IMG/VR virus record: IMGVR_UViG_3300034411_000581
Location: 1-25,070 of that record
Source: a virus
Lineage: Duplodnaviria > Caudoviricetes
Strand: one strand, 5' to 3'
DNA: 25,070 nt
A program made the position numbers and the translations under genes. The notes beneath the pieces are model-generated. The model was not told the origin of the DNA. It saw only the letters and a list, made by a program, of their open reading frames with translations, and made no database searches. Each line of letters starts with the position of its first letter. Position 1 is the stretch's first letter. Shown piece after piece: positions 1 to 25,001 of the stretch.

Positions 1-1721
1 ATTCTTACAGTGAGTCACCGTACTTTGAAGACATTTATTATGTTGGTGAAGTAAAATTTGTGCCTATCAATGAGCTTAAGAAGCAATTTCCTGATCTCGA
101 CGAGGCACAGTTAGAAAAAATACAGAAGCAAGGATCACATAACCATAGCGCTGGATACGATCAGTCTTTGGTAAACCATGATGTTCGTGACAATAATGTA
201 GTGCAAGTGTTGTACTTCAATTATAAGACGTACATGAATGAAGTATATAAGGTTAAAGAAACTGCAACCGGCGCTTCTAAAATTATAGTAAGAGACGACC
301 AGTTTGATCCTCCTGTAGAATTACTTGAGGCTGAGTTCGGTAAAATGTCTCGTTCACTTGAAGTATTATATGAAGGTGTACTTATATTAGGTACTGACAT
401 TCTGCTTAAGTGGGAGATGGCTAAAAATATGATGCGCCCTAAAAGTGATTATGCTAAAGTTAAAATGAACTACAGCATTGTTGCGCCGCGCATGTATAAA
501 GGTAAGATTGAATCTATTGTAAGCCGTTGTACTGGTTTTGCAGATATGATTCAAATTACTCACCTTAAGATGCAGCAAGTACTGAGCAGAATGATGCCTG
601 ATGGGGTATACATGGATGCTGACGGTCTTGCTGAAATTGATTTAGGTAATGGTACCAACTACAACCCGCAAGAAGCACTTAACATGTTCTTCCAAACGGG
701 TTCTGTTATTGGCCGCTCATTTACAAGCGAGGGCGATATGAATCCAGGCAAAGTGCCAATTCAGCCATTGCAAACTGGTGCAGGTGGTCAGAAGCTGCAA
801 ACACTTATACAAACTTATAACTATTATTTGCAAATGATCCGTGACGTTACGGGTCTTAATGAAGCTCGTGATGGTTCATCACCTGATTCTAGAGCATTAG
901 TAGGTGTTCAAAAAATGGCAGCGGCTAATTCAAATACGGCAACGCGTCATATTCTTGATGCTGGTTTATTCTTAACAGCAGAAACAGCTGAGTGTTTATC
1001 ACTACGTATTTCTGATATTATAGAGTTTGATCCTTCACGTGAAGCGTTTATACAAAAAATCGGCAGCCATAACGTAGGTATTTTAGCTGAGCTAGAAGAC
1101 TTACACTTGCACGACTTTGGTATTTCATTAGAGCTTTCGCCGGATGACGAAGAAAAAGCGTTGCTAGAAAACAATATTCAAACTGCATTATCTGCAGGGC
1201 TTATTGATTTAGACGATGCTATTGATATTCGTGAAGTTAAGAACTTAAAGTTAGCTAACCAGTTATTAAAGCTACGCCGTAAGAAAAAGCAAGAGCGCGA
1301 CCAAATGATGCAACAGCAAAATATGCAAGCGCAAGCTCAAGCGAATGCCCAAGCACAACAAGTTGCCGCACAAGCTGAAATGCAGAAAGATCAGGCAGCG
1401 TTGCAAACTAAGTCTCAGCTAGAACAACTTAAAGCTCAAATAGAGCAAGCTAGGATTGACAAAGAAGTTGAGGCTAAGATGCAATTGATGGCATTAGAGT
1501 TCCAGTATAACATGAAGCTTAAAGGCTTAGAAGTTGATGCTGCTAAAAGTAAGATCTCGGAAACTGAAGATCGCAAAGACAAAAGAACAAAAATTCAAGC
1601 TACACAACAAAGTGAGCTTATAGACCAAAGACAAAAAGGCGGTTCGCCTAAAGACTTCGAATCCTCTGGTAATGATATACTTGGCGGTGGTTTCGGTTTA
1701 GGAAGTTTCGAACCTAGGTAA
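1..1721 (+). CDS. Phage portal protein (5'-truncated by window edge)
   Basis: The frame is open from position 3 (SYSESPYFEDIYYVGEVKFVPINELKKQFP), so the GTG at 60 is internal. It lies upstream of the scaffold-like and capsid genes, has the portal-like segment YYLQMIRDVTGLNEARDG, and ends in a long Q/A-rich coiled coil. TAA at 1719-1721. Confidence 0.8.
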   Translation, partial: SYSESPYFEDIYYVGEVKFVPINELKKQFPDLDEAQLEKIQKQGSHNHSAGYDQSLVNHDVRDNNVVQVLYFNYKTYMNEVYKVKETATGASKIIVRDDQFDPPVELLEAEFGKMSRSLEVLYEGVLILGTDILLKWEMAKNMMRPKSDYAKVKMNYSIVAPRMYKGKIESIVSRCTGFADMIQITHLKMQQVLSRMMPDGVYMDADGLAEIDLGNGTNYNPQEALNMFFQTGSVIGRSFTSEGDMNPGKVPIQPLQTGAGGQKLQTLIQTYNYYLQMIRDVTGLNEARDGSSPDSRALVGVQKMAAANSNTATRHILDAGLFLTAETAECLSLRISDIIEFDPSREAFIQKIGSHNVGILAELEDLHLHDFGISLELSPDDEEKALLENNIQTALSAGLIDLDDAIDIREVKNLKLANQLLKLRRKKKQERDQMMQQQNMQAQAQANAQAQQVAAQAEMQKDQAALQTKSQLEQLKAQIEQARIDKEVEAKMQLMALEFQYNMKLKGLEVDAAKSKISETEDRKDKRTKIQATQQSELIDQRQKGGSPKDFESSGNDILGGGFGLGSFEPR

Positions 1722-1734
1722 TAATAACCATAAC

Positions 1735-11237: not shown

Positions 11238-11277
11238 TACGTAATAATGAATAATAACTTAATATAATACAAACGCC

Positions 11278-13063: not shown

Positions 13064-16000
13064 ATGGATCTTAGTAAACTTAGTCCCGAAAAACTGCAAA
13101 ATATAGCAGATATGAACGGTGTAACCGTTGAAGAGCTATTAGCAAAAGCAAGTGGCGGTGCGGGAAAGCAGAACGACTTGATGGAAACAGACCCGCCAAC
13201 AAGTCAGAATACAGAAACGTCCGCTGGGGAATCCAGTTCGGGCGATATTTCTTTGGGGTCACCCGAAACTGATTTAGTCCAAAAATCTAAAGAAGCAATA
13301 AAAAATATAAAGTTGTCTACCGAAGAAATTCAGGATATAGAAATAAAAGCAACTGAAGATTTAAGGATAGAGCTCGCGGCTACTAATAATATAGCTATTG
13401 ACGCGGTTACAGATGAACAACTTTCGGAGTTACTGCCTTCTAAAATACAAAATTTAAAATCACAGGCTTTATCTAATAAGATAGAGCCGATAATGAAAGA
13501 TTTTGAAGATGAATCTTTAAACTTTTTTGAAGAAGGTGTTAAAGACTTAAGATTAGCTTCTGTATGGGCAAGCAAATATTTGCCTGAAGGTTTAGGTAAA
13601 ACTTTAGCAAGAGTCGGACAAGCTGCGTTTGTTACCGAAGCTGAGGTTGAAATGCAAAAAGGTAAAAAAGCTATTACAGAAGATTTTAAAAAATCACAAA
13701 CAGAAGCGGTTGCTGCTCATAATAAAGCTGCAGAAGAAATTAACAACCATGCGGTTACTATAGACGCTATAGATGTTGAGTTACAAAATTTAGAATCTAA
13801 ATACGAAAACGATCCTTATTCCGTTACGCCACAGGAACAAACTGAGTATACTGAATTAATAGAAACACGAAACGCTGCAGCAACTTCTTTAAACAATAAG
13901 CTTGCCTCGTTAGACCAGTATATTGAAGAGGCGAGCACCGCTGCTGAGGTAGTAGACATGGTTGGCCGTGCTTATCACCCGGAAGAGGTAGCCCTTAATA
14001 GAATGGAAGGCGCTACACTAAGATTAGTGGCTGGGTTAGGGGATGTTGTAAGAAACGTAAACCCTGTTAAGCTTACTGAAGTGCTAACTGGCGGATATCA
14101 GCCAAGATGGGCTGAGGTAATGGATGATGGTATTAATTCGTGGACTAATGATTTATATTCTGAAGTCCAAAATCTAGAGGCCCGCACAAGAAAAAAACAA
14201 GAGTTTCTTAAAATTGGAGAAAGTGGTAACGCTGCAGGTGACGTATTTGATTTTGCTTTAGACTTGTTTTCAGAACAAGTTGTTAATACAGCCATTACGG
14301 CTTCAATTCCAGGCGCTGGTTTATATATAGTTTCAGCAGGTGCGGCTGGTAACAAGTTTCATGAAATGGACCTTCAGATAGAAGAAGGCAAAAATATAAG
14401 TGCTGCGCAGTATTACGGTGCGGCATTTATGCATGGGGCTGGTGAATTTATTACTGAAAAAGTAACACTAGGTCAAGCAAAAGGTGCGTTTAGCGCAACC
14501 CGAAAGATGTTTGATTTACAAGCTGCTTCAGGTTTAACTAATATTGTGCCCACAGTTACGAAAGCTTTTGGTACATATGGTTTTAATATTCTTTCAGAAG
14601 CAGGTGCAGAAGGTGGCTCTCAAATTATAGGTAACATAGCGGATAAATATATTTTAAAAGAAAATATTGGTTTATACGATGGTGTAGCCGAAGCTGCTAT
14701 TTCCGGTGCATTTATGTCTGGTACGGCTTTTAGTGCCCCTGTATTAGCTGTTGACCTTACTAGAGCATTTACATACGGGCCTGAAATAAAAGCGGCTAAC
14801 ATGCGATCCAGAGAAATGATGGATCTAAAAAACAAGTTTGATAAACTGCCTGTTTCTGAAGATCCGGAAGTCAAGCAAGCCAGAGCCGCTATATTGGAAA
14901 GAATAGATGAGCTAGCAGAAGAAAACGTTCAGGCTATTAATGTTGCAGCAGCTAGGGTTGATGAATTATCACGAGCGGATAAAAGAGCGTTATTAGACAT
15001 TGACACTAAAGCTCAAAGATTTAGAGGCAAAATTGATAGTATAAACGGTAACAAAAAGCTATCTGAAGATCAAAAGAAAAAAATGATCAACAGATATTCT
15101 AATGGATTAAACCTATTAGAAAATCAAAAATCACAAATTTTTGGAAACACAGAAGCTTCTTTAGGCAGAGCTCGAGCAAAAGCTTTTCAAATGATTACTG
15201 CAGCCGAGGCTGGTTTGGATTTCAATTATATTGAAGGAGAAACATCAGCGGAAGCTATTGCAGAAGCAAAAAAATTAGTTGAAGATTCTAATTTAAGCGA
15301 AGAAGCTAAAGCAGAGTTAAATAAAAAACTAGAAGAAGCTTCTAACGAAGAAGGAATGAACGGTTTTTATCTTGGTGCTGAATTAGGTTTACCTATTGCA
15401 TTAACTACCGCGGAAGGTAAAAAACGCAATAGCTCTGTTGCGGCACACGAGGTTTCGCACGCTACTTTGTTTGCTAAATTACTAGAGGGCAACGCTGACG
15501 CGGTTGGTTTAGCTAATGATTTAGCTAGCTACTTGATCAAAAATCACGGAGCGTTAGCCGCCCGCAAGTTGCAAGGGGTTATTAATACATATACAAAAGA
15601 AAAAGGATTTACCGATGCTCAAATAGCTGAAGAAATCATGGCTGCTGCTGTAGAGCTTACTAGGCGTTTAGACTTAGATATTAGCAAAAATCAAACCTTG
15701 CAAGGCAAGTTGATGAGCCGTTGGAATAAGCTGTTTCCTAATAATAAAGAAATAACAGAAGTACGTACCGGTAAAGATGTATTAGATGCTATTATATCTT
15801 TTAACTCATCATTTGATAAAGGTGAAATGTCTGGGTTATCTAAGGACATTATAGAAGGTAAAGTAAAAGCTAGACAAACCACTGAGTCTGCAATTAAAAC
15901 AGCGCAGGCTAATATTACATATAGCAAAGACCAAGACATATCTTCAGCGGCTGATAGAGCAAAAAGGGTATTAGAAAAAGTAAGTTCTAATATGGAATTC

Positions 16001-19000
16001 TTTGACCCTAACTCTCCACTTATTGCGCGTGTACTACCAGGAATGATACAGGCACAGTTAGCTAAGCTTTCTATTAAAGGGCTGCAGTTTGACATGGACG
16101 AGGCTAACAGCGATATCATACTTAGATTATACTCTAACGGTGATATAAATAAGTTTGATGGACGCGGTACATTATATGGTTATATAAACGGTCGTATTAG
16201 TTTCCGTATTAAAGATATGCTTAAGGCTTCTGGCGAGGGCAAAAACGATATTGTTGAAGACTTCAACCAGAGCGACGTAGAGGACCTTAAAGGCGTTGCG
16301 GCTGATGTTACCACTGTAGAGCAAATAGAAGAGCGTACGGAAGCTGAGAGACCTGAATACAGGCCTCTTTTAAACAGTCGTATTGCTAAGCCTGAGCTTA
16401 TTGAAAATATATTAGCTAAAATACCTAGAATAGTAGGAACGCTAAAAAGTCGCATTGACGCGCCCGTATCTAAAAACACTACAGTTACTCCTTTAGTAAA
16501 TGAGCTAAGGTTAGCTTTAGGTAAGCAGATAGACATTGACTTGAAAAAAGCAATGGGGGGCAAAAAAGATGGTGTACTTAGAAGATTCTTAACCGATAAT
16601 AAGAAAGCCATACTTGAAAACATGACTACTACTTATTTGATGTCTGCATTCCCTGCCGCCATACAAAAGAAAGTAGATGGTGTATTTACCAGTGATTGGA
16701 AAGGTAAGAAAATTGATCGCGAAACAACTGATACTGACAATGCTGGCCGAACGTCAGGTGCTGAGATTGTGCGTAGATTACCTAATGCTTCAGTAAAAAT
16801 AGATGACAAAACATTTTTGTCTTTTATTCTTGATGAAAAGGGCAATCCATTGCGTGGTAAAAAAGAATCTCTTGCTAAAGCTATTGCTGAAGAACTGTCT
16901 ATAGAAATTATCAATCAAGAAATGCAAGATCCTGATAGCAAAATTCGTCAGGCATTCGAAGCTAATCAAGAAAGATTGGGTGCAGAGCTAGCTGATAATT
17001 TTGTAGCTAAACTTAAACTTGATTCAGAAAGAGGAAATGTAAAATACTCTATTTCGCTAGATGTTCTTCAAAATAAAGACTTTCAAAAAGAATTATCAAA
17101 GTTAACAAGCTCTATTACAATCAGCGGTCGTCAAGAGGTTATTGATGACAATTTTAAAATTATAGTAGGTCTTGAAACGCCATTTAAAAAAGAATTAGAG
17201 GTAGCATTAAAAATAATGTTAACCGAAGGGATTTTAGAAGAAGGCAAAGGCTTAGGTTTCATTAGCCAAGTTGAGTTAAACGAAAACATCCCTTCAGATG
17301 TTGTTGATGAACTAAAAAGAATTCATTTTGGCAGCAGCCCAACAAAAGGATCTTTAGCCGAGTTTGAAAAATTAGGCGAGCCTGTTGTTAATGATATAAT
17401 ACCTTTATTTCCTTATAAAATATTAAACAAATTAGGTCCTCAATTTTTTGGCGCAACCACACGTTACACTAAAATGTTTAAGGATAAAATTAAAATTTCC
17501 GGTGCTTTTGATATTAACGTGCCACGAGCTTTAAACGTAAGCTTAACACATAAATTTAATAATCCGTCTACTGGAATTTTTAAAGAAGTATATGATATTT
17601 TAGCGCTTGATATACCTGCTGCTGAAAAAATAAAATTGTTTGAAAAAAGCGAAGCCAGAAAAAAAATATTGCAAGCTAACAAGCACAATAGATTATTAGC
17701 TGTTTACGCTGCTAAAAAATTAGCAAGTACTGTACAGAAAAATTCATTTTTAGGCTGGTTAAACGGTGATAGTAACATGGGTGTAAATCCATCTACTATA
17801 TTAAGAATACTACAAGCTCAGACTAATTTAAAAGACGGATTTAGAGCTTACGGTAATATAGAATATATAACATTTAAAGATGGGCCGCAAAGCAATATTA
17901 AGTTTGAGCATGTTTTAGACAACGCTACCCTTATGGCTAAGCTAGCCAATATCATGCTTAGCGAAAGCAACCCGGACATTGCCAACATTAAAATTGAAGA
18001 GCTATTTGAAAATAATAATTTATGGGCAGAAGACAATGCTACATTAGACTTTATAGATACCGCTGGTAGAAACAACCCCCAGCAAGATGCTCGGTTACTA
18101 ATGTTACCAAAAGCGCAGCTCGATGACGTATATTATATTGGCGGAGCCACCGTTGTTAAAGCAGAGCCTATTGTAAGGCAAAAAGTAGAAGCTAATAAAG
18201 CAAAAGCTTCATTAAAAATAGATTATGAAGCTTTAGTGCGTTCAAAAAATAGTTTAAAACAAGGCACTCTTTTTTCATTATCTACGCCTCAAGCTATTTT
18301 TATGGTAGGTGGACCTGGTGCTGGAAAATCTAGCGTTATTGCCGGATTAAATTTAGTAGAAGATGGTTACCGTCTTATTAACCAAGACCCTTATTTAGAA
18401 AAATACATTAAAGAAGCAGGTCTTCCAACAGATGAAAAAACTTACGATAAAGAGCAAAGATCTTTACGTGCTAAATTAGGCTGGAAAGCTAGAAAAGCTG
18501 CAGAAGAAGATTTAGCTAATAATACTGCCGCTAAAGAAAGTATGGTTGTTGACGGCACTGGCGCTTCTTATAAAGCTACAACTAAAAAGATGAAAGCTTT
18601 AGAGGATGCAGGATATGAGGTGCATATGATATTCGTAAATACCAGCAAAGAAGTTGCGGTACAAAGAAATAGAATGCGCGCGGAAAGATCGTTAGCAGAT
18701 TTTATAGTTACAAAAACATGGGATAACGTACAAGAAAGTGTTGCTAAATACAGAGAGGATTACGGCAGCAGGTTCTACGGTATTGAAATGGATAACTTAA
18801 AATTTGGAGAAGCACTTCCTTCAAGCTTTGTAGAATCTGTAAAAGGAGGTTTAAACAAATCAAAAACGCAGTACTCGCTCTCCCTTAGCGAAGAGTTTAA
18901 TAATATGGTGGAACGCACTAAAGGTGTTGAAGCTGATAAAGTATACTCTGCTGCTCAAGCGCGTATGCAAGGTGAAAGAAAAGGTAAGTACCGTTTATTT

Positions 19001-21043
19001 ATTCCTTCTTCCGCAGAAGACTTTAGAGGGCTAACTTCATATACATTTGCTGGAAAAGGAAAACAAGGTGAAGCTGATCAAAAATTTATTGAAGACAAGT
19101 TAATAACACCTTATACTAGAGGTGTGGCAATGATTGAAGCGATTAAGCAACAAGTTCGCCGGGAATATAATGCTTTAGCAAAAGCTAATAAGCAGTACTT
19201 TAAAATGCTCGGTAAAAAAATTACCAATAGTGATTACACATATGATCAAGCATTAAGAGTCTACATGTGGACCCAGCAAGGTATTGAAATACCCGGTATG
19301 TCTAAAGACGACATCAATTTTTTAGTTAATGAAATTAAGCAATTTCCAGCGCTTATTGATTTAGGTAACCAGATGCAGCTTATATCTAGACAAGATACTT
19401 GGGCAGAGCCTGGTGAGCACTGGCTTTCTCGTACTTTGATTTCCGATTTGAACGGCATGACTGAAAAAGTAGGTAGAAAAAAATACTTACAAGAGTTCAT
19501 TGAAAACTCTGAAGCAATATTTAGCACAGAAAATTTAAATAAAATAGAAGCTGTTTACGGTACAAGGCATAGAGAAGCTATAGAAGATGCTTTATTTGCA
19601 ATGATTAACGGTACAAACCGTACTGTTGGTACAAAAAATAAGCAGGTAAATGCTTGGTTAAACTGGGTTAACAACTCTACCGGTGCAATCATGTTCTTAA
19701 ATGTTAGATCCGCTATACTACAAACACTTTCGGCTACCAACTTTATTAATTGGTCTGATAACAACCCGCTTAAAGCAGCAGCTGCATTTGCGAATCAAAA
19801 ACAATACTGGTCGGATTTCGCAATGATATTTAATTCTGACAAATTAAAACAACGCCGTTCGGGATTACAAACCGACGTTAACGCTGCGGAAATTGCTAAT
19901 GAAGCGGAAGGCGCTAAAAATAAAGCGGCTGCTGTTGTTACGTATTTATTGAAAATTGGTTTTACGCCTACTCAAATGGCGGATAGCTTTGCGATATCTA
20001 TAGGTGGCGCAAGCTTTTACAGAAACAGGGTTAAAACATATCTTAAAGAAGGTATGGATCAAGCAGCGGCGGAAAAGCAAGCGTTTGAAGACTTTAGTAA
20101 AACTGCAGATGAAGCACAGCAATCATCTGATCCGTATTTAGTTTCTCAAGAACAACGCAGCGTGCTGGGAAGATTAGTTCTTGCATTCCAAAACACTCCG
20201 ATGCAGTACACCCGCTTAATGAAAAAAGCGATGAAGGATCTTGCTAATGGTAGAGGTGATGCTAAAACACATATATCTAAGATTATTTATTACGGTGCGG
20301 TGCAGAACTTTATATTCTCAGCGTTACAAAGTGCTTTATTTGCTGTTATACCAGGGTTTGATGACGAAGACGAATCTGAAATGACTGATAAAGAGCGTGA
20401 AAAACTTGAACGCAAGAATGATAAAAGAAATCTTCGTATTATTAATAGTATGACAGATTCTATTCTGAAAGGTAGCGGGGCACGAGGTGCTGTATTAGCT
20501 ACTATTAAAAATACTATTACCGAATATTTTGCACAAAAAGAAAAAGGATTTATGGCCGATAGAGGCGCAGTTATATTACAAGCGCTTAGTCTTTCTCCGC
20601 CTATAGGTTCGAAGCTTAGAAAAATAAACTCAGCATTAGCAGGTGAAGCTTTTAACAAAGATATACTAGAAGCAAGAGGCTTTAGTATTATGGAAGATGG
20701 AAGAATAAACTTAAGTCCTGCATATTCTATAATAGGGTCTGTGGTTGAAGGAACAACTAACATTCCTTTAGCAAGAATGGTAGATCTTATTAATGGCTAC
20801 TCCGAAGCATTAGATTCTCGCAATACAGCTTGGCAACGTATAGCATTAGCACTTGGTTGGAAAACCTGGGATGTTGGTGCTAAAAATGAAGAGCACGATC
20901 TTATTGAGATTGAAGGTAAAGCAAAACGAAAAGAAGAAGGTAAAGCTAAAGCTAAAGAAACTCGTAAAAGCAATGCTGCAAAAAAGAATGCCGACAGGCT
21001 TGAAGAGTATTATAAAAAATATCCGGAACGTAGACCTAAATAA
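13064..21043 (+). CDS. Giant multidomain (polyvalent) virion/ejection protein (2659 aa) with zincin, sigma-2-like and zeta-toxin-like kinase modules
   Basis: Uninterrupted 7980-nt ORF. HEVSH at 15446-15460 with a downstream EE; KFDGRGTLYGYINGRISFRIKDMLK near 16150-16225; Walker A GGPGAGKS at 18308-18331 plus VVDGTG and RNRMR; hydrophobic G/A-rich segments in the N- and C-terminal thirds. Confidence 0.75.
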   Translation: MDLSKLSPEKLQNIADMNGVTVEELLAKASGGAGKQNDLMETDPPTSQNTETSAGESSSGDISLGSPETDLVQKSKEAIKNIKLSTEEIQDIEIKATEDLRIELAATNNIAIDAVTDEQLSELLPSKIQNLKSQALSNKIEPIMKDFEDESLNFFEEGVKDLRLASVWASKYLPEGLGKTLARVGQAAFVTEAEVEMQKGKKAITEDFKKSQTEAVAAHNKAAEEINNHAVTIDAIDVELQNLESKYENDPYSVTPQEQTEYTELIETRNAAATSLNNKLASLDQYIEEASTAAEVVDMVGRAYHPEEVALNRMEGATLRLVAGLGDVVRNVNPVKLTEVLTGGYQPRWAEVMDDGINSWTNDLYSEVQNLEARTRKKQEFLKIGESGNAAGDVFDFALDLFSEQVVNTAITASIPGAGLYIVSAGAAGNKFHEMDLQIEEGKNISAAQYYGAAFMHGAGEFITEKVTLGQAKGAFSATRKMFDLQAASGLTNIVPTVTKAFGTYGFNILSEAGAEGGSQIIGNIADKYILKENIGLYDGVAEAAISGAFMSGTAFSAPVLAVDLTRAFTYGPEIKAANMRSREMMDLKNKFDKLPVSEDPEVKQARAAILERIDELAEENVQAINVAAARVDELSRADKRALLDIDTKAQRFRGKIDSINGNKKLSEDQKKKMINRYSNGLNLLENQKSQIFGNTEASLGRARAKAFQMITAAEAGLDFNYIEGETSAEAIAEAKKLVEDSNLSEEAKAELNKKLEEASNEEGMNGFYLGAELGLPIALTTAEGKKRNSSVAAHEVSHATLFAKLLEGNADAVGLANDLASYLIKNHGALAARKLQGVINTYTKEKGFTDAQIAEEIMAAAVELTRRLDLDISKNQTLQGKLMSRWNKLFPNNKEITEVRTGKDVLDAIISFNSSFDKGEMSGLSKDIIEGKVKARQTTESAIKTAQANITYSKDQDISSAADRAKRVLEKVSSNMEFFDPNSPLIARVLPGMIQAQLAKLSIKGLQFDMDEANSDIILRLYSNGDINKFDGRGTLYGYINGRISFRIKDMLKASGEGKNDIVEDFNQSDVEDLKGVAADVTTVEQIEERTEAERPEYRPLLNSRIAKPELIENILAKIPRIVGTLKSRIDAPVSKNTTVTPLVNELRLALGKQIDIDLKKAMGGKKDGVLRRFLTDNKKAILENMTTTYLMSAFPAAIQKKVDGVFTSDWKGKKIDRETTDTDNAGRTSGAEIVRRLPNASVKIDDKTFLSFILDEKGNPLRGKKESLAKAIAEELSIEIINQEMQDPDSKIRQAFEANQERLGAELADNFVAKLKLDSERGNVKYSISLDVLQNKDFQKELSKLTSSITISGRQEVIDDNFKIIVGLETPFKKELEVALKIMLTEGILEEGKGLGFISQVELNENIPSDVVDELKRIHFGSSPTKGSLAEFEKLGEPVVNDIIPLFPYKILNKLGPQFFGATTRYTKMFKDKIKISGAFDINVPRALNVSLTHKFNNPSTGIFKEVYDILALDIPAAEKIKLFEKSEARKKILQANKHNRLLAVYAAKKLASTVQKNSFLGWLNGDSNMGVNPSTILRILQAQTNLKDGFRAYGNIEYITFKDGPQSNIKFEHVLDNATLMAKLANIMLSESNPDIANIKIEELFENNNLWAEDNATLDFIDTAGRNNPQQDARLLMLPKAQLDDVYYIGGATVVKAEPIVRQKVEANKAKASLKIDYEALVRSKNSLKQGTLFSLSTPQAIFMVGGPGAGKSSVIAGLNLVEDGYRLINQDPYLEKYIKEAGLPTDEKTYDKEQRSLRAKLGWKARKAAEEDLANNTAAKESMVVDGTGASYKATTKKMKALEDAGYEVHMIFVNTSKEVAVQRNRMRAERSLADFIVTKTWDNVQESVAKYREDYGSRFYGIEMDNLKFGEALPSSFVESVKGGLNKSKTQYSLSLSEEFNNMVERTKGVEADKVYSAAQARMQGERKGKYRLFIPSSAEDFRGLTSYTFAGKGKQGEADQKFIEDKLITPYTRGVAMIEAIKQQVRREYNALAKANKQYFKMLGKKITNSDYTYDQALRVYMWTQQGIEIPGMSKDDINFLVNEIKQFPALIDLGNQMQLISRQDTWAEPGEHWLSRTLISDLNGMTEKVGRKKYLQEFIENSEAIFSTENLNKIEAVYGTRHREAIEDALFAMINGTNRTVGTKNKQVNAWLNWVNNSTGAIMFLNVRSAILQTLSATNFINWSDNNPLKAAAAFANQKQYWSDFAMIFNSDKLKQRRSGLQTDVNAAEIANEAEGAKNKAAAVVTYLLKIGFTPTQMADSFAISIGGASFYRNRVKTYLKEGMDQAAAEKQAFEDFSKTADEAQQSSDPYLVSQEQRSVLGRLVLAFQNTPMQYTRLMKKAMKDLANGRGDAKTHISKIIYYGAVQNFIFSALQSALFAVIPGFDDEDESEMTDKEREKLERKNDKRNLRIINSMTDSILKGSGARGAVLATIKNTITEYFAQKEKGFMADRGAVILQALSLSPPIGSKLRKINSALAGEAFNKDILEARGFSIMEDGRINLSPAYSIIGSVVEGTTNIPLARMVDLINGYSEALDSRNTAWQRIALALGWKTWDVGAKNEEHDLIEIEGKAKRKEEGKAKAKETRKSNAAKKNADRLEEYYKKYPERRPK

Positions 21044-21049
21044 ATAACA

Positions 21050-21514
21050 ATGAAATTATCAGATAACTTAAGCGTTGCTGAGGTGATTAAATCAACTACA
21101 GCAAAGAGATGTGGCATAAATAACGAGCCTAAAATAGAACATTTGGAAAATTTAAAGGCAATTGCGCTAAACATCTTCCAACCAGCGCGTAATTATTTTA
21201 AAAACCCCATTGCCGTAACTTCTGGATATCGCAGTGAAGCTCTTAACGAGCGCATTGGCGGAAGTAAAACCTCACAACACTCAAAGGGTCAAGCTCTTGA
21301 CTTAGACGCCCAAGCATTCGGTGGGCTGACCAACAAAGAATTGTTTCATTACATATCAGAGCACACTGATTTCGATCAGTTAATATGGGAATTTGGTACG
21401 GAAGACGAACCAGATTGGGTCCATGTTTCTTACGTTGATAACCAAACAAACCGTGGAGAAAGATTAGTAGCCTACAAAAAAGACGGCAAAACAAAATACA
21501 AGTACTTTAAATAG
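21050..21514 (+). CDS. Peptidase M15-family zinc peptidase, probable endolysin (154 aa)
   Basis: Motifs TSGYRS, SQHSKGQALD (H-x6-D) and WVHVSY are the zinc-ligand signature of M15 peptidases; no signal peptide or wall-binding domain visible. Confidence 0.88.
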   Translation: MKLSDNLSVAEVIKSTTAKRCGINNEPKIEHLENLKAIALNIFQPARNYFKNPIAVTSGYRSEALNERIGGSKTSQHSKGQALDLDAQAFGGLTNKELFHYISEHTDFDQLIWEFGTEDEPDWVHVSYVDNQTNRGERLVAYKKDGKTKYKYFK

Positions 21515-21515
21515 C

Positions 21516-21791
21516 ATGGCAAAGGAAATTTCAGAAAACACAGTAGTAGGGTTATCCCTAAAAACTATAGGCGCTATTATGGCAGCGGTCGGGGTAGTTA
21601 CGCTCGGCTATTTTGACCTGCAGGCAGGCATTGAAGAAGCTAAACTTTTACCACCTGCTGAGGTTGGCAGAATGGAATACGATCTTAAAGATCAGCTAAT
21701 ACGTGAAACCATCATGAATACGCAAGATGATGTAGGCGATATTAAAGAGCAGCTCGATAAGATGGAAAAGAGACTATTTGAAATGAAGTGA
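21516..21791 (+). CDS. Small single-pass membrane protein with C-terminal coiled coil (91 aa); holin or inner-spanin candidate
   Basis: Hydrophobic stretch TIGAIMAAVGVVTLGYF followed by heptad-like DVGDIKEQLDKMEKRL; 1 nt after the endolysin stop. Confidence 0.6.
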   Translation: MAKEISENTVVGLSLKTIGAIMAAVGVVTLGYFDLQAGIEEAKLLPPAEVGRMEYDLKDQLIRETIMNTQDDVGDIKEQLDKMEKRLFEMK

Positions 21792-21792
21792 T

Positions 21793-22143
21793 ATGAAAAA
21801 GACAATACTTCTGTTGATTGCATTTTCACTATGTTCTTTTGCTTCTAGTACTATTAGCAAACGTGGCGTAGTTTTAGTGCATTACAACGCGAGCTTCAAC
21901 TCCGCAAATAATTATGTGGACGTTGTTAAAATTAAAGATGCTAAAATATTTAAAGCATCTATAGATAACAATGCTGCGCTAAAGCAAGATGAGCGCATAA
22001 GATCAGTGCCTACATTAGTATTGTACAAAAACGGTAAAGAGATTACAAGATGGGAAGCCGGTATTAATTTATCGCTTAGCCATATAGATTATCGTGAGAT
22101 ACAAAAAGAAGTTGACCAGCTAACCGGGGCTAATAAGTTTTAA
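21793..22143 (+). CDS. Exported thioredoxin-fold protein lacking CxxC (116 aa)
   Basis: Signal peptide MKKTILLLIAFSLCSFA; VVLVHYNASFNSAN aligns by eye with the thioredoxin VxFxAxWCGPC region; IRSVPTLVLYKNGKEITR is the cis-Pro/beta-hairpin motif. Confidence 0.75.
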   Translation: MKKTILLLIAFSLCSFASSTISKRGVVLVHYNASFNSANNYVDVVKIKDAKIFKASIDNNAALKQDERIRSVPTLVLYKNGKEITRWEAGINLSLSHIDYREIQKEVDQLTGANKF

Positions 22144-22145
22144 GC

Positions 22146-23237
22146 ATGAAAAATTTACTTATAACATTTTTTATATCAACCTCAGCGTTTGGGCAGGGAT
22201 TGTTAAAGTACAGCACGTTGTACACCAGTGTGTACGGAGCGTCGCCAATGGAAGCACAGTCAGAGTACTTTGTTTCTCAAGGTGGGGACCTAATGGATAT
22301 AACCATTGAAAACCCGTTTGATTACAGATATACATTTGGCATTCGCCGTGTAGCTCGTTACGATTACGAGAAAAGACAAAACCCATTTTACGATGGCCAC
22401 AATCAGTCTACAACATCTTTATTTGCGACTGTTGGTGCTGTTGAGGGGTTTGAGTACTTAGCTCAATTTGATCGCGGCAGACAGCAAGGAAACGATTATA
22501 TAAACCAACGTTACTTCCTTAGATACCTAGCCAAGCATTGGATGGTAAAAGCAGAGCTGTTCAACCAGGGATTAGTTAACCTAGATTACACTCAAGTTGA
22601 GGTAAGAGGTAGATTGCACGTTGGTGAAGTAGATTTTAGTTTGGGTGTTGCAGCACGACAGCACCAAGCTTATGGTTACAATCCTATTGCGGAATATCTA
22701 GCTACTAGTCCATGGTGGGACCTAGTGCGTGATATGGGTTATGAAGATATCTATTACGGTATCGATTACGATAACGACGACGAAATAGACAATGGAGACT
22801 GGTACTGGTTAGATCCAGACGGTAACAAAGTTGCTGATACTGATCTTGATTTTAGAAAGTATATATACGGCGATATTGTAAATGCATACAATGCAGAGCA
22901 GCTCGCCGGCATTGGCGCACTTGGCTCCTTATCAGCTATAATCGGTATTGATTACTATCACTACTCAGAAGACTTTTGGATTCATTCATGGGCAAGTATG
23001 TTGCCGTGGCACATGCATATCATAGGAGACCACGAGTTTTCATACGAGCAGTTTGCTGATGAATTAGAAAATACAAATCATTTTATACCAGGGCAATGGA
23101 TCGACTACAACTTCGGTGGAGTTATAGGTTATAAGATAGGATTGAACTGGGGTATATTCGCGGAAGGTGAGTATATGAAATACTGGGATAAAGAAGTCTT
23201 TGAGATCAAAGCAGGAATTAATTACCAATTCAGATAA
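22146..23237 (+). CDS. Putative outer-membrane beta-barrel protein (363 aa)
   Basis: Signal peptide MKNLLITFFISTSAFG then Q; aromatic-rich alternating strands (DYRYTFGIRR, DFSLGVAARQ, YNFGGVIGYKI, WGIFAEGEY); C-terminal FEIKAGINYQFR resembles a BAM beta-signal. Confidence 0.65.
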   Translation: MKNLLITFFISTSAFGQGLLKYSTLYTSVYGASPMEAQSEYFVSQGGDLMDITIENPFDYRYTFGIRRVARYDYEKRQNPFYDGHNQSTTSLFATVGAVEGFEYLAQFDRGRQQGNDYINQRYFLRYLAKHWMVKAELFNQGLVNLDYTQVEVRGRLHVGEVDFSLGVAARQHQAYGYNPIAEYLATSPWWDLVRDMGYEDIYYGIDYDNDDEIDNGDWYWLDPDGNKVADTDLDFRKYIYGDIVNAYNAEQLAGIGALGSLSAIIGIDYYHYSEDFWIHSWASMLPWHMHIIGDHEFSYEQFADELENTNHFIPGQWIDYNFGGVIGYKIGLNWGIFAEGEYMKYWDKEVFEIKAGINYQFR

Positions 23238-23251
23238 TAAAAACAAAAAAA

Positions 23252-24187
23252 ATGAGTTACAAAAGAACGCCGTTTAAGATGGCACCAAAGTCACCTTTAA
23301 CAAAAGCGCTTAAAGGTAATCAAGGAAAACTTCCGCAGCATTTGCAAGAAGCAATTAAAGCTGCACCTGAATCTCCAGCTAAAGCAATGATGGGTCCAGG
23401 CGTGCAAAAAGAAGCTGGTAAAACAGGAACAGCTGGGGCAAACAGTGCCGCAGGTAAGAACGCTGCACCAGCACCGGTTCAAGGCCCACCGCGCAAAAGC
23501 TCTGGTACTTTAAGTAAAAGTATTAAAGATCGCAGCTATGCTCCAGATACGTTTGAAGGTAAAACTCAATCAACTTTTAGTACACCAAAGCCTAAGGCTA
23601 AAGCTAAAGCGCCAGCGGCTAAATATGATAAAGAACTAAACTCTTTAGTTGCTTCAAGAAAAGGTTTGAAGAAAGGTACTGCTGAATACAACAGAGTACA
23701 GAATCGTATTAATGAAAAGTTAGGTAGCAGCGTTCGTCGTAGAGAGGAAGAGGCTACAGTAATTGCTCCTAAGAAAAAGAAAGCAACTGCAGCTCCTAAA
23801 GTAAATACAGCTTTACCAGCTAAACCTTCTGCACCTGCAGCTAAAAAACCTGCAGCCAAAAAGAATAGCCCGCGTATTACTCAAACAGCAAATCGAGCAA
23901 CAGTAGTTACTAAGTCTAATGGCGTTAAGAAAAAAGAAACTGTAAATAAAAACACTGGTAACAAGAAAGTTGTTGTTAAAGACGCAAACACGCGTACAGT
24001 CACTAAGACTAACAAAGCGGGTGAGTCAACCACTAAAACTACTAAGCGCATTGGTAAAGGCCGTATTAAAGGTGCTATCAAAAATGCTAGGCTAGCTCGC
24101 TTAGATAAAAAAGCAACGCGTCAAGCGGCTAAAGCTGCGGATAAGAAAAGTAAAGGCGCTGGTAAACTAAGTGGTCTTGGCAAGTAA
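23252..24187 (+). CDS. Lys/Ala/Pro-rich basic low-complexity protein (311 aa), histone-H1-like composition
   Basis: ATG after an A-rich leader; PAAKKPAAKK and KT-rich tracts; few acidic residues. Confidence 0.7.
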   Translation: MSYKRTPFKMAPKSPLTKALKGNQGKLPQHLQEAIKAAPESPAKAMMGPGVQKEAGKTGTAGANSAAGKNAAPAPVQGPPRKSSGTLSKSIKDRSYAPDTFEGKTQSTFSTPKPKAKAKAPAAKYDKELNSLVASRKGLKKGTAEYNRVQNRINEKLGSSVRRREEEATVIAPKKKKATAAPKVNTALPAKPSAPAAKKPAAKKNSPRITQTANRATVVTKSNGVKKKETVNKNTGNKKVVVKDANTRTVTKTNKAGESTTKTTKRIGKGRIKGAIKNARLARLDKKATRQAAKAADKKSKGAGKLSGLGK

Positions 24188-24335
24188 AGGATGTGGGCCG
24201 CAGCGGCTCGGTAGCCCATTGAAGCTTAAAGATGCATGCTACCATAAAGTAAAAGCACAGTATGATGTATTCCCCTCAGCTTATGCTTCTGGTGCCATCG
24301 CCAAATGCAGAAAGAATAAAGGAAAGAAAAAGTAA
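24171..24335 (+). CDS. Small basic protein (about 52-54 aa) with KDACYHKVK...PSAYASGA motif; not in the ORF track
   Basis: Translated by hand: (M)VLASKGCGPQRLGSPLKLKDACYHKVKAQYDVFPSAYASGAIAKCRKNKGKKK*. Start GTG 24171 or TTG 24177 overlaps the upstream gene end; TAA 24333-24335 is 1 nt before the next ATG. Confidence 0.75.
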   Translation: MVLASKGCGPQRLGSPLKLKDACYHKVKAQYDVFPSAYASGAIAKCRKNKGKKK

Positions 24336-24336
24336 T

Positions 24337-24621
24337 ATGTATATACAAAGTAACTCTCCCTTCAAAAAAGTCAGAAAGACTAAAGAAGGCTTAGCTCTTA
24401 AACGATGGTTTAAAGAAGAGTGGAAAACACCAGAGGGTAAAGAGGGTTACAGCAAAGGTGACAGCGGCACATTTAGACCAACTAAAAAAGTTAGTGCTGA
24501 TACACCTAAAACATATGCTGAACTTAGCCCAGCTGATTTAGCTGCTGCAAAGGAAGAAAGGAAAGCGAAAGGCAGAGTATCACGATATGACCGGTCTGAG
24601 TTAAAGAAAAACAAAAAGTAA
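24337..24621 (+). CDS. Small basic protein (94 aa) with LKRWFKEEW...RPTKKVSADTPKT motif
   Basis: Start moved from 24262 to ATG 24337 (MYIQSNSPFKK) because 24262-24336 is occupied by the preceding gene in another frame. Confidence 0.75.
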   Translation: MYIQSNSPFKKVRKTKEGLALKRWFKEEWKTPEGKEGYSKGDSGTFRPTKKVSADTPKTYAELSPADLAAAKEERKAKGRVSRYDRSELKKNKK

Positions 24622-24623
24622 TT

Positions 24624-25001
24624 ATGAGAAAAGGAATTGGACCAAACAAATTAGGTGCGGTTAAATCACCTATTAAGAAAACGGGGAAGGCTAAAGAAGG
24701 ATCGCCAGATACTAATAAAAAAGACCCGTATAAAGATAACATGACTGCTTTTAATAACCGCATGGCCAATAAAGCTACGGGTGGTATAAAAGTAGATAAC
24801 ACTATTGAATCTTTAGTTATGGGGGGGCCTGTAGTTAAAGGCGTAACAAAAGCAATTAAAGGTGCAGCTGGTGCTATTGGTGCTGGAAGAGCAGCTTCTG
24901 CAGTAGGCTCTAAAGTGGGGCATGGCGTAGCGGAAGCCGCACATGTCGGCGAAGTAGCTCATTCCGCAGCTCATATGAAAAAATCCAAAAACAAAAAGTA
25001 A
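24624..25001 (+). CDS. Small basic hypothetical protein (125 aa)
   Basis: ATG 2 nt after the previous stop; N-terminus KGIGPNKLGAVKSPIKK; G/A-rich and His-containing C-terminus; followed by a terminator. Confidence 0.7.
   Translation: MRKGIGPNKLGAVKSPIKKTGKAKEGSPDTNKKDPYKDNMTAFNNRMANKATGGIKVDNTIESLVMGGPVVKGVTKAIKGAAGAIGAGRAASAVGSKVGHGVAEAAHVGEVAHSAAHMKKSKNKK

Follow-up and report, generated by a model that had tools for sequence, protein, structure and literature searches.

The window, by which we mean the whole stretch of 25,070 nucleotides that was analyzed, is a fragment of 25 kb (40% complete) from a marine, podovirus-like phage that has not been cultured. Genes for the portal, the capsid, and ring proteins, a gene matching the crAss muzzle family, and two smaller genes lead up to a 2659-aa open reading frame on the plus strand (13064 to 21043), the last gene of the particle block, which specifies a giant multidomain protein. 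The capsid shares 44 to 48% identity with capsids of Flavobacterium elemo phages, Maribacter phage Panino, and Cellulophaga phages. The host is presumably a flavobacterium or another member of the Bacteroidota, for which the sole direct hint is a short contig, assigned to a Bacteroidetes metagenome-assembled genome (MAG), that carries a peptidase gene with 95% identity. Its gene position makes the giant protein a likely ejected cargo, and position together with the crAss-like layout gives its packaging into the particle a good probability. The protein has 557 homologues, and cultured phages yielded no homologue except of its kinase part.

Upstream of the region of interest, an HExxH motif at aa 795 to 799 (15446 to 15460, plus strand) marks a probable zincin-like protease, recognized in the sequence and without a Pfam match. 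The motif recurs 150 to 250 aa upstream of the sigma-like domain described below in 16 of 17 further giant proteins, and the protease is a candidate self-processing enzyme. Candidate cleavage sites are provided by a border motif, [KTQL][YF]S[LIK], the first of whose four similar copies lies at aa 952 (15917 to 15928, plus strand) and the others at aa 1327, 1736, and 1936; these copies fall at module borders, and where the basic domain ends, the motif is conserved. Farther downstream, aa 1740 to 1891 (18281 to 18736, plus strand) form a zeta-toxin/AAA_33-type P-loop kinase cassette (PF06414, E 3e-13; PF13671, E 3e-12), which is kept in some homologues only and missing from many. In homologues, the corresponding slot is empty or holds other cassettes, such as one with a DxD HAD-like motif recognized by eye (P0097) or one matching Tgi2PP (P0117).

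Beyond the giant gene, the M15 peptidase is followed at 21793 to 23237 by a signal-peptide-bearing thioredoxin-like gene and a gene for a 363-aa outer-membrane-like protein rich in aromatic residues. Past the lysis region, 23252 to 25001 encodes very basic low-complexity small proteins and includes a DUF5872 gene; genes similar to this set flank the late block in relatives. Against the window's 21050 to 23237, the peptidase and the three following genes of one relative (G004, stretch L047) are nearly the same, and its sigma-like domain belongs to a different lineage, which points to module exchange.

A sigma-domain-2-like module

The first-pass annotation of this locus had quoted a peptide resembling region 2 of ECF sigma factors, followed by an acidic linker, and both are in place. 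The peptide lies in frame at 16037 to 16225 (aa 992 to 1054 of the open reading frame at 13064 to 21043), and the linker (16247 to 16348, plus strand) is acidic in sequence and predicted to be disordered, with pLDDT below 50 at aa 1069 to 1093. The folded unit begins earlier than that annotation proposed, at about aa 957. Model, fold, and profile searches delimit a four-helix domain at aa 955 to 1061 (15926 to 16246, plus strand), with one N-terminal helix plus regions 2.1 to 2.4. Modeled alone from 98 sequences, it gives a confident prediction (pLDDT 91.8) that matches the sigma domain 2 fold.

Three kinds of search converge on sigma factors at modest scores. A family profile run against 177,635 PDB sequences returned 6 weak matches, and sigma factors account for 4 (gp55, E 0.032; WhiG, E 0.34 and 0.92; SigB, E 0.49). 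Foldseek of the domain model returned no match at E ≤ 0.001, and its rows 1 to 9 are all sigma chains by entry title (E 0.32 to 1.0). In VIA-align, sigma factors make up 8 of the 10 best structural matches with middling scores (Z 6.4 to 8.5): gp55 at 8.5 (rmsd 3.2, 94 residues aligned), sigma28 and SigE at 7.4, sigma70 at 7.0, and SigB at 6.9; the best non-sigma match reaches 6.9, and in helical bundles a Z below about 13 may reflect a common arrangement. The language-model search placed a sigma match at rank 28 (0.94). The window sequence itself, when checked against Sigma70_r2, is without a Pfam match, and among homologues that family appears in 1 of 27 (E 0.07) and in 2 of 98 (E 0.018), below the Pfam cut-off. 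Pfam and PHROGs gave no sigma call on the window protein and the homologue sets. Searches with phmmer and the first profiles against the PDB gave helical noise only; a match to amyloid precursor E2 (E 6e-4) that they produced was rejected on account of its helical composition. With the two-domain model, Foldseek found nothing at E ≤ 0.001, and in the viral library weak phage-sigma rows stood at ranks 4, 5, 11, and 46.

The conserved positions of the domain appear to be those of the sigma-2 pattern. Across 62 diverse homologues, an aromatic residue occupies aa 1031 in 61 (F, Y, and W in 28, 20, and 13) and aa 1040 in all 62. At what we take to be region 2.2 (aa 1013, 1016, and 1017), D or E is found in 40/62 at aa 1013 and in 35/62 at aa 1017 and Q in 4/62 at aa 1016, in a stretch where the alignment is noisy. 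The W433/W434 aromatic pair of group 1 is absent (G/R), as in sigma28. Among homologues the domain falls into several lineages and diverges to 9 to 30% identity; the last helix of some copies carries insertions, and the domain does not reach significance in 4 of the 17 further giant proteins. Sigma-2 ancestry is very probable on three weak and concordant methods, none of them decisive alone. Of the ECF reading, this ancestry is supported by profile, two structure searches, and the language model; the last helix looks nearer to group 3 (WhiG/sigma28) and to gp55 than to ECF factors.

T4 gp55 is a phage sigma that retains little beyond a core resembling domain 2; it acts late, is produced as a free protein in the infected cell, and needs gp33 and the sliding clamp. 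It is also the top match of the window domain by both profile (E 0.032) and fold (Z 8.5; PDB 7d7c/7d7d chain F). Unlike gp55, the window domain sits inside a 2659-aa protein of the particle block and is proposed to act early. With domain 2 of the group 3 factors sigma28/FliA and WhiG (PF04542) it shares the fold (6pmj, Z 7.4) and an alignment of the last helix with WhiG. Unlike those factors, it shows no regions 3 and 4 and stays below the Pfam cut-off. We describe it as a reduced phage sigma like gp55 within a probable polyvalent virion protein, and not as a PF04542 member by profile.

The linker leads into a K/R-rich domain at aa 1096 to 1331 (16349 to 17056, plus strand), delimited by conservation and a confident model, with 58% mean column identity and many invariant K/R. 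Profile searches, a fold search of the two-domain model, and a language-model search were uninformative and placed it in no known family. The module formed by the sigma-like and basic domains is matched by 385 clusters at 50% identity (E ≤ 0.001); no prophage or MAG copy of it was found in the genome contigs searched. That no region 4 helix-turn-helix follows region 2, as the first-pass annotation had remarked, agrees with the model, Pfam, profile-profile comparison, and a two-domain fold search of the downstream region. In place of region 4, the basic domain might, as a weak candidate, read upstream promoter elements. It is weakly detected in genomes with G as the variable promoter base discussed below, and a role as universal reader of the upstream element AYACGA is weakened by genomes selected on the promoter motif, which often match it weakly or not at all.

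Promoter motifs and the free sigma factor of the relatives

Five complete relatives repeat before their early genes a motif, TACAA-N5-AYACGA-N8-nGATAAT, that we call class I. Its strict form (AYACGA-N8-nGATAAT) occurs in all 11 module-bearing records that are at least 90% complete, in 2 to 13 copies nearly all on one strand, and reversed-pattern controls gave 0. Overall, 23 of 50 records have it; the others are mostly fragments, and two are the distant Panino and MW202828. Relaxed matches are intergenic in 43 of 47 cases in five genomes. In 61 bacterial genomes of one order, class I is at chance (2 matches versus 4 in controls). The window holds no class I site because it contains late genes only. 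In the window-type clade, the base preceding GATAAT is C, as judged from a relative with a 91% identical module (G067, 4/4 sites).

Placing GATAAT at -12 to -7 makes +1, a position left free by the search pattern, a purine in 193/193 sites and -1 a pyrimidine in 156/193. Since neighboring positions are purine-rich (0.47 to 0.94), the signal lies in the contrast between -1 (0.19 purine) and +1 (1.0). The predicted spacing is that of sigma70-family geometry, unlike the flavobacterial primary promoter, TAnnTTTG at -12 to -5 (PMC9723704, PMC7641319). In its C-type form, the class I -10 element reads CGATAA and equals that of sigma28, whose region 2 residues contact -13C (bioRxiv 2020.01.02.893370). 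The upstream elements of class I lie at about -27 and -37, not at the canonical -35 of group 3 sigmas. In the A-type genomes G001, G091, and G093 (stretches L457 to L459), the predicted +1 of many class I sites coincides exactly with an ATG, which suggests leaderless mRNAs.

The early regions of G001 to G005 contain 0 to 5 TAnnTTTG sites per genome in sense versus 5 to 12 in antisense; the opposite strand of the upstream half of class I frequently spells TAnnTTTG, and such antisense sites may be coincidence or antisense host promoters. Three phages with related capsids (elemo, Panino, and MW202828) have neither the domain nor class I in the stretches read. In elemo, domain, free sigma, and class I are all missing in the 45 of 60 kb read, and the early region is headed by host-type TAnnTTTG sites.

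Each of the five complete relatives also encodes a free 250-aa sigma factor with regions 2 and 4, which the first-pass annotation missed and which is the main rival reader of class I. Its gene is present in all 21 complete records; the protein is highly conserved, with a sigma28-like last helix and a region 2.4 that hardly changes between genomes of the C, T, A, and G types. Profile-profile comparison relates the window domain to it weakly (probability 0.8%, E 0.068, 14 columns); the window domain gave nothing against a neighboring 206-aa protein used as a control, nor did the basic domain against the free sigma. No RNA polymerase came to light: the five complete relatives have no Rpb1_3 match (5/5), the translation of the window's giant protein contains no DFDxD polymerase motif, and DxDGD occurs in two unrelated smaller ORFs only.

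A second motif, GT(A/G)AT(A/C/T)(A/G)TA, or class II, stands at matching late positions in relatives. In 26 of 32 genomes it is found no more than 130 nt past the free sigma gene, the upstream control of 0/32 being a weak one, as upstream lies coding DNA. The window carries this promoter-like middle/late motif at 1718 to 1726 (plus strand), upstream of the gene in the scaffold position and at the same place as in complete relatives, where it is a candidate target of the free sigma. A class II-like motif with one mismatch, GTAATAATG, lies at 11241 to 11249 (plus strand), upstream of the block of cargo genes that includes the giant gene, with homologous intergenic sites in G002, G004, and G005. 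Class I sites, in turn, occur within 1.5 kb upstream of the free sigma gene in 11 of 32 genomes; in G123 the gene begins 27 nt behind such a site, which agrees with the free sigma being made by class I transcription. In G135 (stretch L482), a class I site takes the usual class II place directly after the free sigma gene.

An inverted repeat, TGAC.TAG ... CTA.GTC(A/G)C with an AT-rich core, is seen in G001 to G005 just before the conserved 206-aa gene that precedes the free sigma. In G004 it lies at 2515 to 2556 of stretch L209, and it is found on L212 near G004:56508-56640, at the start of the late region. It is a candidate operator or origin bound by the 206-aa protein.

Covariation between the last helix and the promoter

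The base at -13, directly before GATAAT, is specific to the genome (C, T, G, or mostly A) and uniform in most genomes, with spacers differing. It covaries with the residue at the position of D1051 (16214 to 16216, plus strand) in the last helix of the sigma-like domain, where the register is anchored on the WhiG alignment. We take this position to be that of R441 in sigma70 and refer to it as 441. In sigma70, R441 contacts the base at -14, one off from -13 (PMC4593229).

All 23 discovery genomes and 14 of 16 test genomes obey the rule that a small residue at this position goes with T; the position was picked after seeing the data, so the test set gives the fairer figure. That set started from 30 genomes picked by the class I motif alone, and those of enough length all carry the giant protein (24/25 by its C-terminal part, 5 more by the module). 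Seven of the 30 were dropped for an unclear register and would, at face value, add four fits and three misses (18/23); five without the anchor and two for which no protein sequence was retrieved were also left out. Among 19 columns compared in 33 genomes with at least two sites and a 60% majority base, position 441 covaries best (1.16 of 1.94 bits, z 11.9), and in 16 de-replicated genomes it reaches p 0.002, or 0.05 family-wise. D or N goes with C (9/9), A, G, or T with T (12/12), and E with G (5/6). Counting against such a code, D is paired with A in four genomes, which have R at 436.

Genomes with close free sigmas harbor different domain lineages (G003/G102, G129/G130, and G004/G067/G072), and residue 441 tracks the promoter base. 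Within each of three lineages (G004/G102, G110-type/G003-type, and G067-type/G130-type), the residue follows the base of the genome. Such shuffling of lineages between genomes with close free sigmas, with residue 441 still tracking the base, is suggestive; region 2.3-2.4 of the free sigma does not vary with the -13 base. The covariation is nonetheless confounded with phylogeny. On the free-sigma tree, the -13 base changes 4 times and the T genomes form one clade, and an independent-pairs test found one pair on well-supported branches and four on all branches, too few for significance. A variable column of the free sigma outside the DNA-reading helix scores 1.21 bits versus 1.26 for residue 441 in the same 25 genomes; being nearly equal, it shows how much phylogeny alone can give.

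Competing readings and a possible route to early transcription

We give an even chance to the reading in which the domain is a minimal early sigma that is delivered by the virion, acts on the host core RNA polymerase, and would open the phage early promoters. The first-pass annotation had left it at a virion-delivered factor that redirects or blocks the host enzyme; redirecting is favored over blocking by an indirect indication, the covariation of D1051 with the -13 base of the phage-specific class I early promoter. More tentatively, and falling a little short of even odds, we propose a fuller scheme for widespread uncultured marine and freshwater flavobacterial phages, which would inject a sigma instead of a polymerase: a domain 2 module released from a virion polyprotein would turn the host core polymerase to a private early promoter, a code of one residue would set the base at -13 (C with D or N, T with A, G, or T, and G with E), and the free sigma would take over for later genes.

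The giant protein would be made late and packaged, as its gene position and the crAss-like layout suggest. Ejection, perhaps with cutting by the HExxH protease at the border motif, would release a module of about aa 955 to 1330. The domain probably binds core polymerase, and by its fold, and perhaps by the acidic residues at two presumed positions of region 2.2, it would grip the beta-prime clamp helices like any sigma 2. The complex would then recognize class I, where the last helix would read the base directly before GATAAT, as the covariation suggests, and the basic domain may, on weak grounds, replace region 4. Early transcripts would include that of the free sigma gene, and judging from the layout the free sigma would take over class II for middle and late genes.

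Against this scheme stands the lack of any single significant homology score and the invariance of GATAAT and AYACGA while the domain diverges to 9 to 30% identity, which a conserved reader, be it the free sigma or a host sigma, fits better. The scheme also does not account for how so divergent a domain would read an invariant GATAAT, or for what would read AYACGA in genomes whose basic domain can hardly be recognized.

Alternatively, a relative of sigma 2 could bind core polymerase or an anti-sigma factor and read no promoter, serving as an injected decoy while a host sigma reads class I. We regard this as unlikely, even though no region 4 is seen, the melting tryptophans are absent, and an arms race would account for how rapidly the domain diverges and is shuffled. 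The flavobacterial polymerase transcribes -35/-10-like middle promoters of phi14:2 (bioRxiv 2020.03.07.982082) and F. psychrophilum has seven ECF sigmas whose motifs are incompletely known (PMC9723704). However, a decoy would not explain why residue 441 tracks the -13 base, and a phage that has no polymerase of its own would be hampered by a blocked core. Class I is, moreover, at chance in the 61 genomes of one order, with the host assignment depending on one binned contig, and the host TAnnTTTG and ECF-type CGT box, as described in PMC9723704, do not match it.

Less probable still is that the free 250-aa sigma, expressed from a host promoter, reads class I and that the embedded domain is an accessory, for example in loading or holding polymerase on the entering DNA. 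The free sigma is present in all 21 complete records and, like the motif, is highly conserved; it combines regions 2 and 4 with a sigma28-like last helix, but its region 2.3-2.4 stays constant despite the changes in the -13 base. Moreover, the class I cluster precedes its gene, which in some genomes follows a class I site immediately; sense TAnnTTTG sites are few in early regions (0 to 5 per genome, below antisense); and the class II promoters would lack a reader.

It is improbable that the bundle owes its likeness to sigma 2 to a common helical arrangement, or is a vestige, and has a structural role in the ejected conduit: no library gave a match at E ≤ 0.001 and non-sigma bundles reach Z 6.9, but the sequence profile and two structure methods independently rank sigma factors first, the conserved positions appear to fit the sigma-2 pattern, and the domain covaries with a promoter base.

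Known ways in which phages start early transcription are with the host holoenzyme, by modifying that holoenzyme, or with a packaged polymerase. The crAss-like virion RNA polymerases (phi14:2 gp66) and that of N4 occupy the same slot after portal, capsid, and muzzle-like genes and have the same proposed job of starting early transcription (PMC10136315, bioRxiv 2020.03.07.982082). They carry a whole polymerase, whereas none was detected in the window's giant protein or in the five complete relatives, so that only the specificity module would be delivered. Polyvalent proteins with zincin-like MPTase domains are likewise large phage proteins with HExxH and a swappable enzyme cassette, likewise proposed to be delivered with the DNA and to process themselves (PMC5512222); the HExxH motif of the window protein came without a Pfam match. 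In the main text of that paper, the word "sigma" occurs 0 times, a count that a Greek-letter form may escape. A full-text literature search, covering few subscription papers, found no description of a virion-delivered phage sigma.

One small domain, one promoter, and one predicted switch (D1051/-13 base) make a sharp culture-free test possible. If true, packaging a sigma module would give phages one more way into early transcription, and it would explain how infection starts in phages that have no polymerase and whose early promoters are not of the host type.
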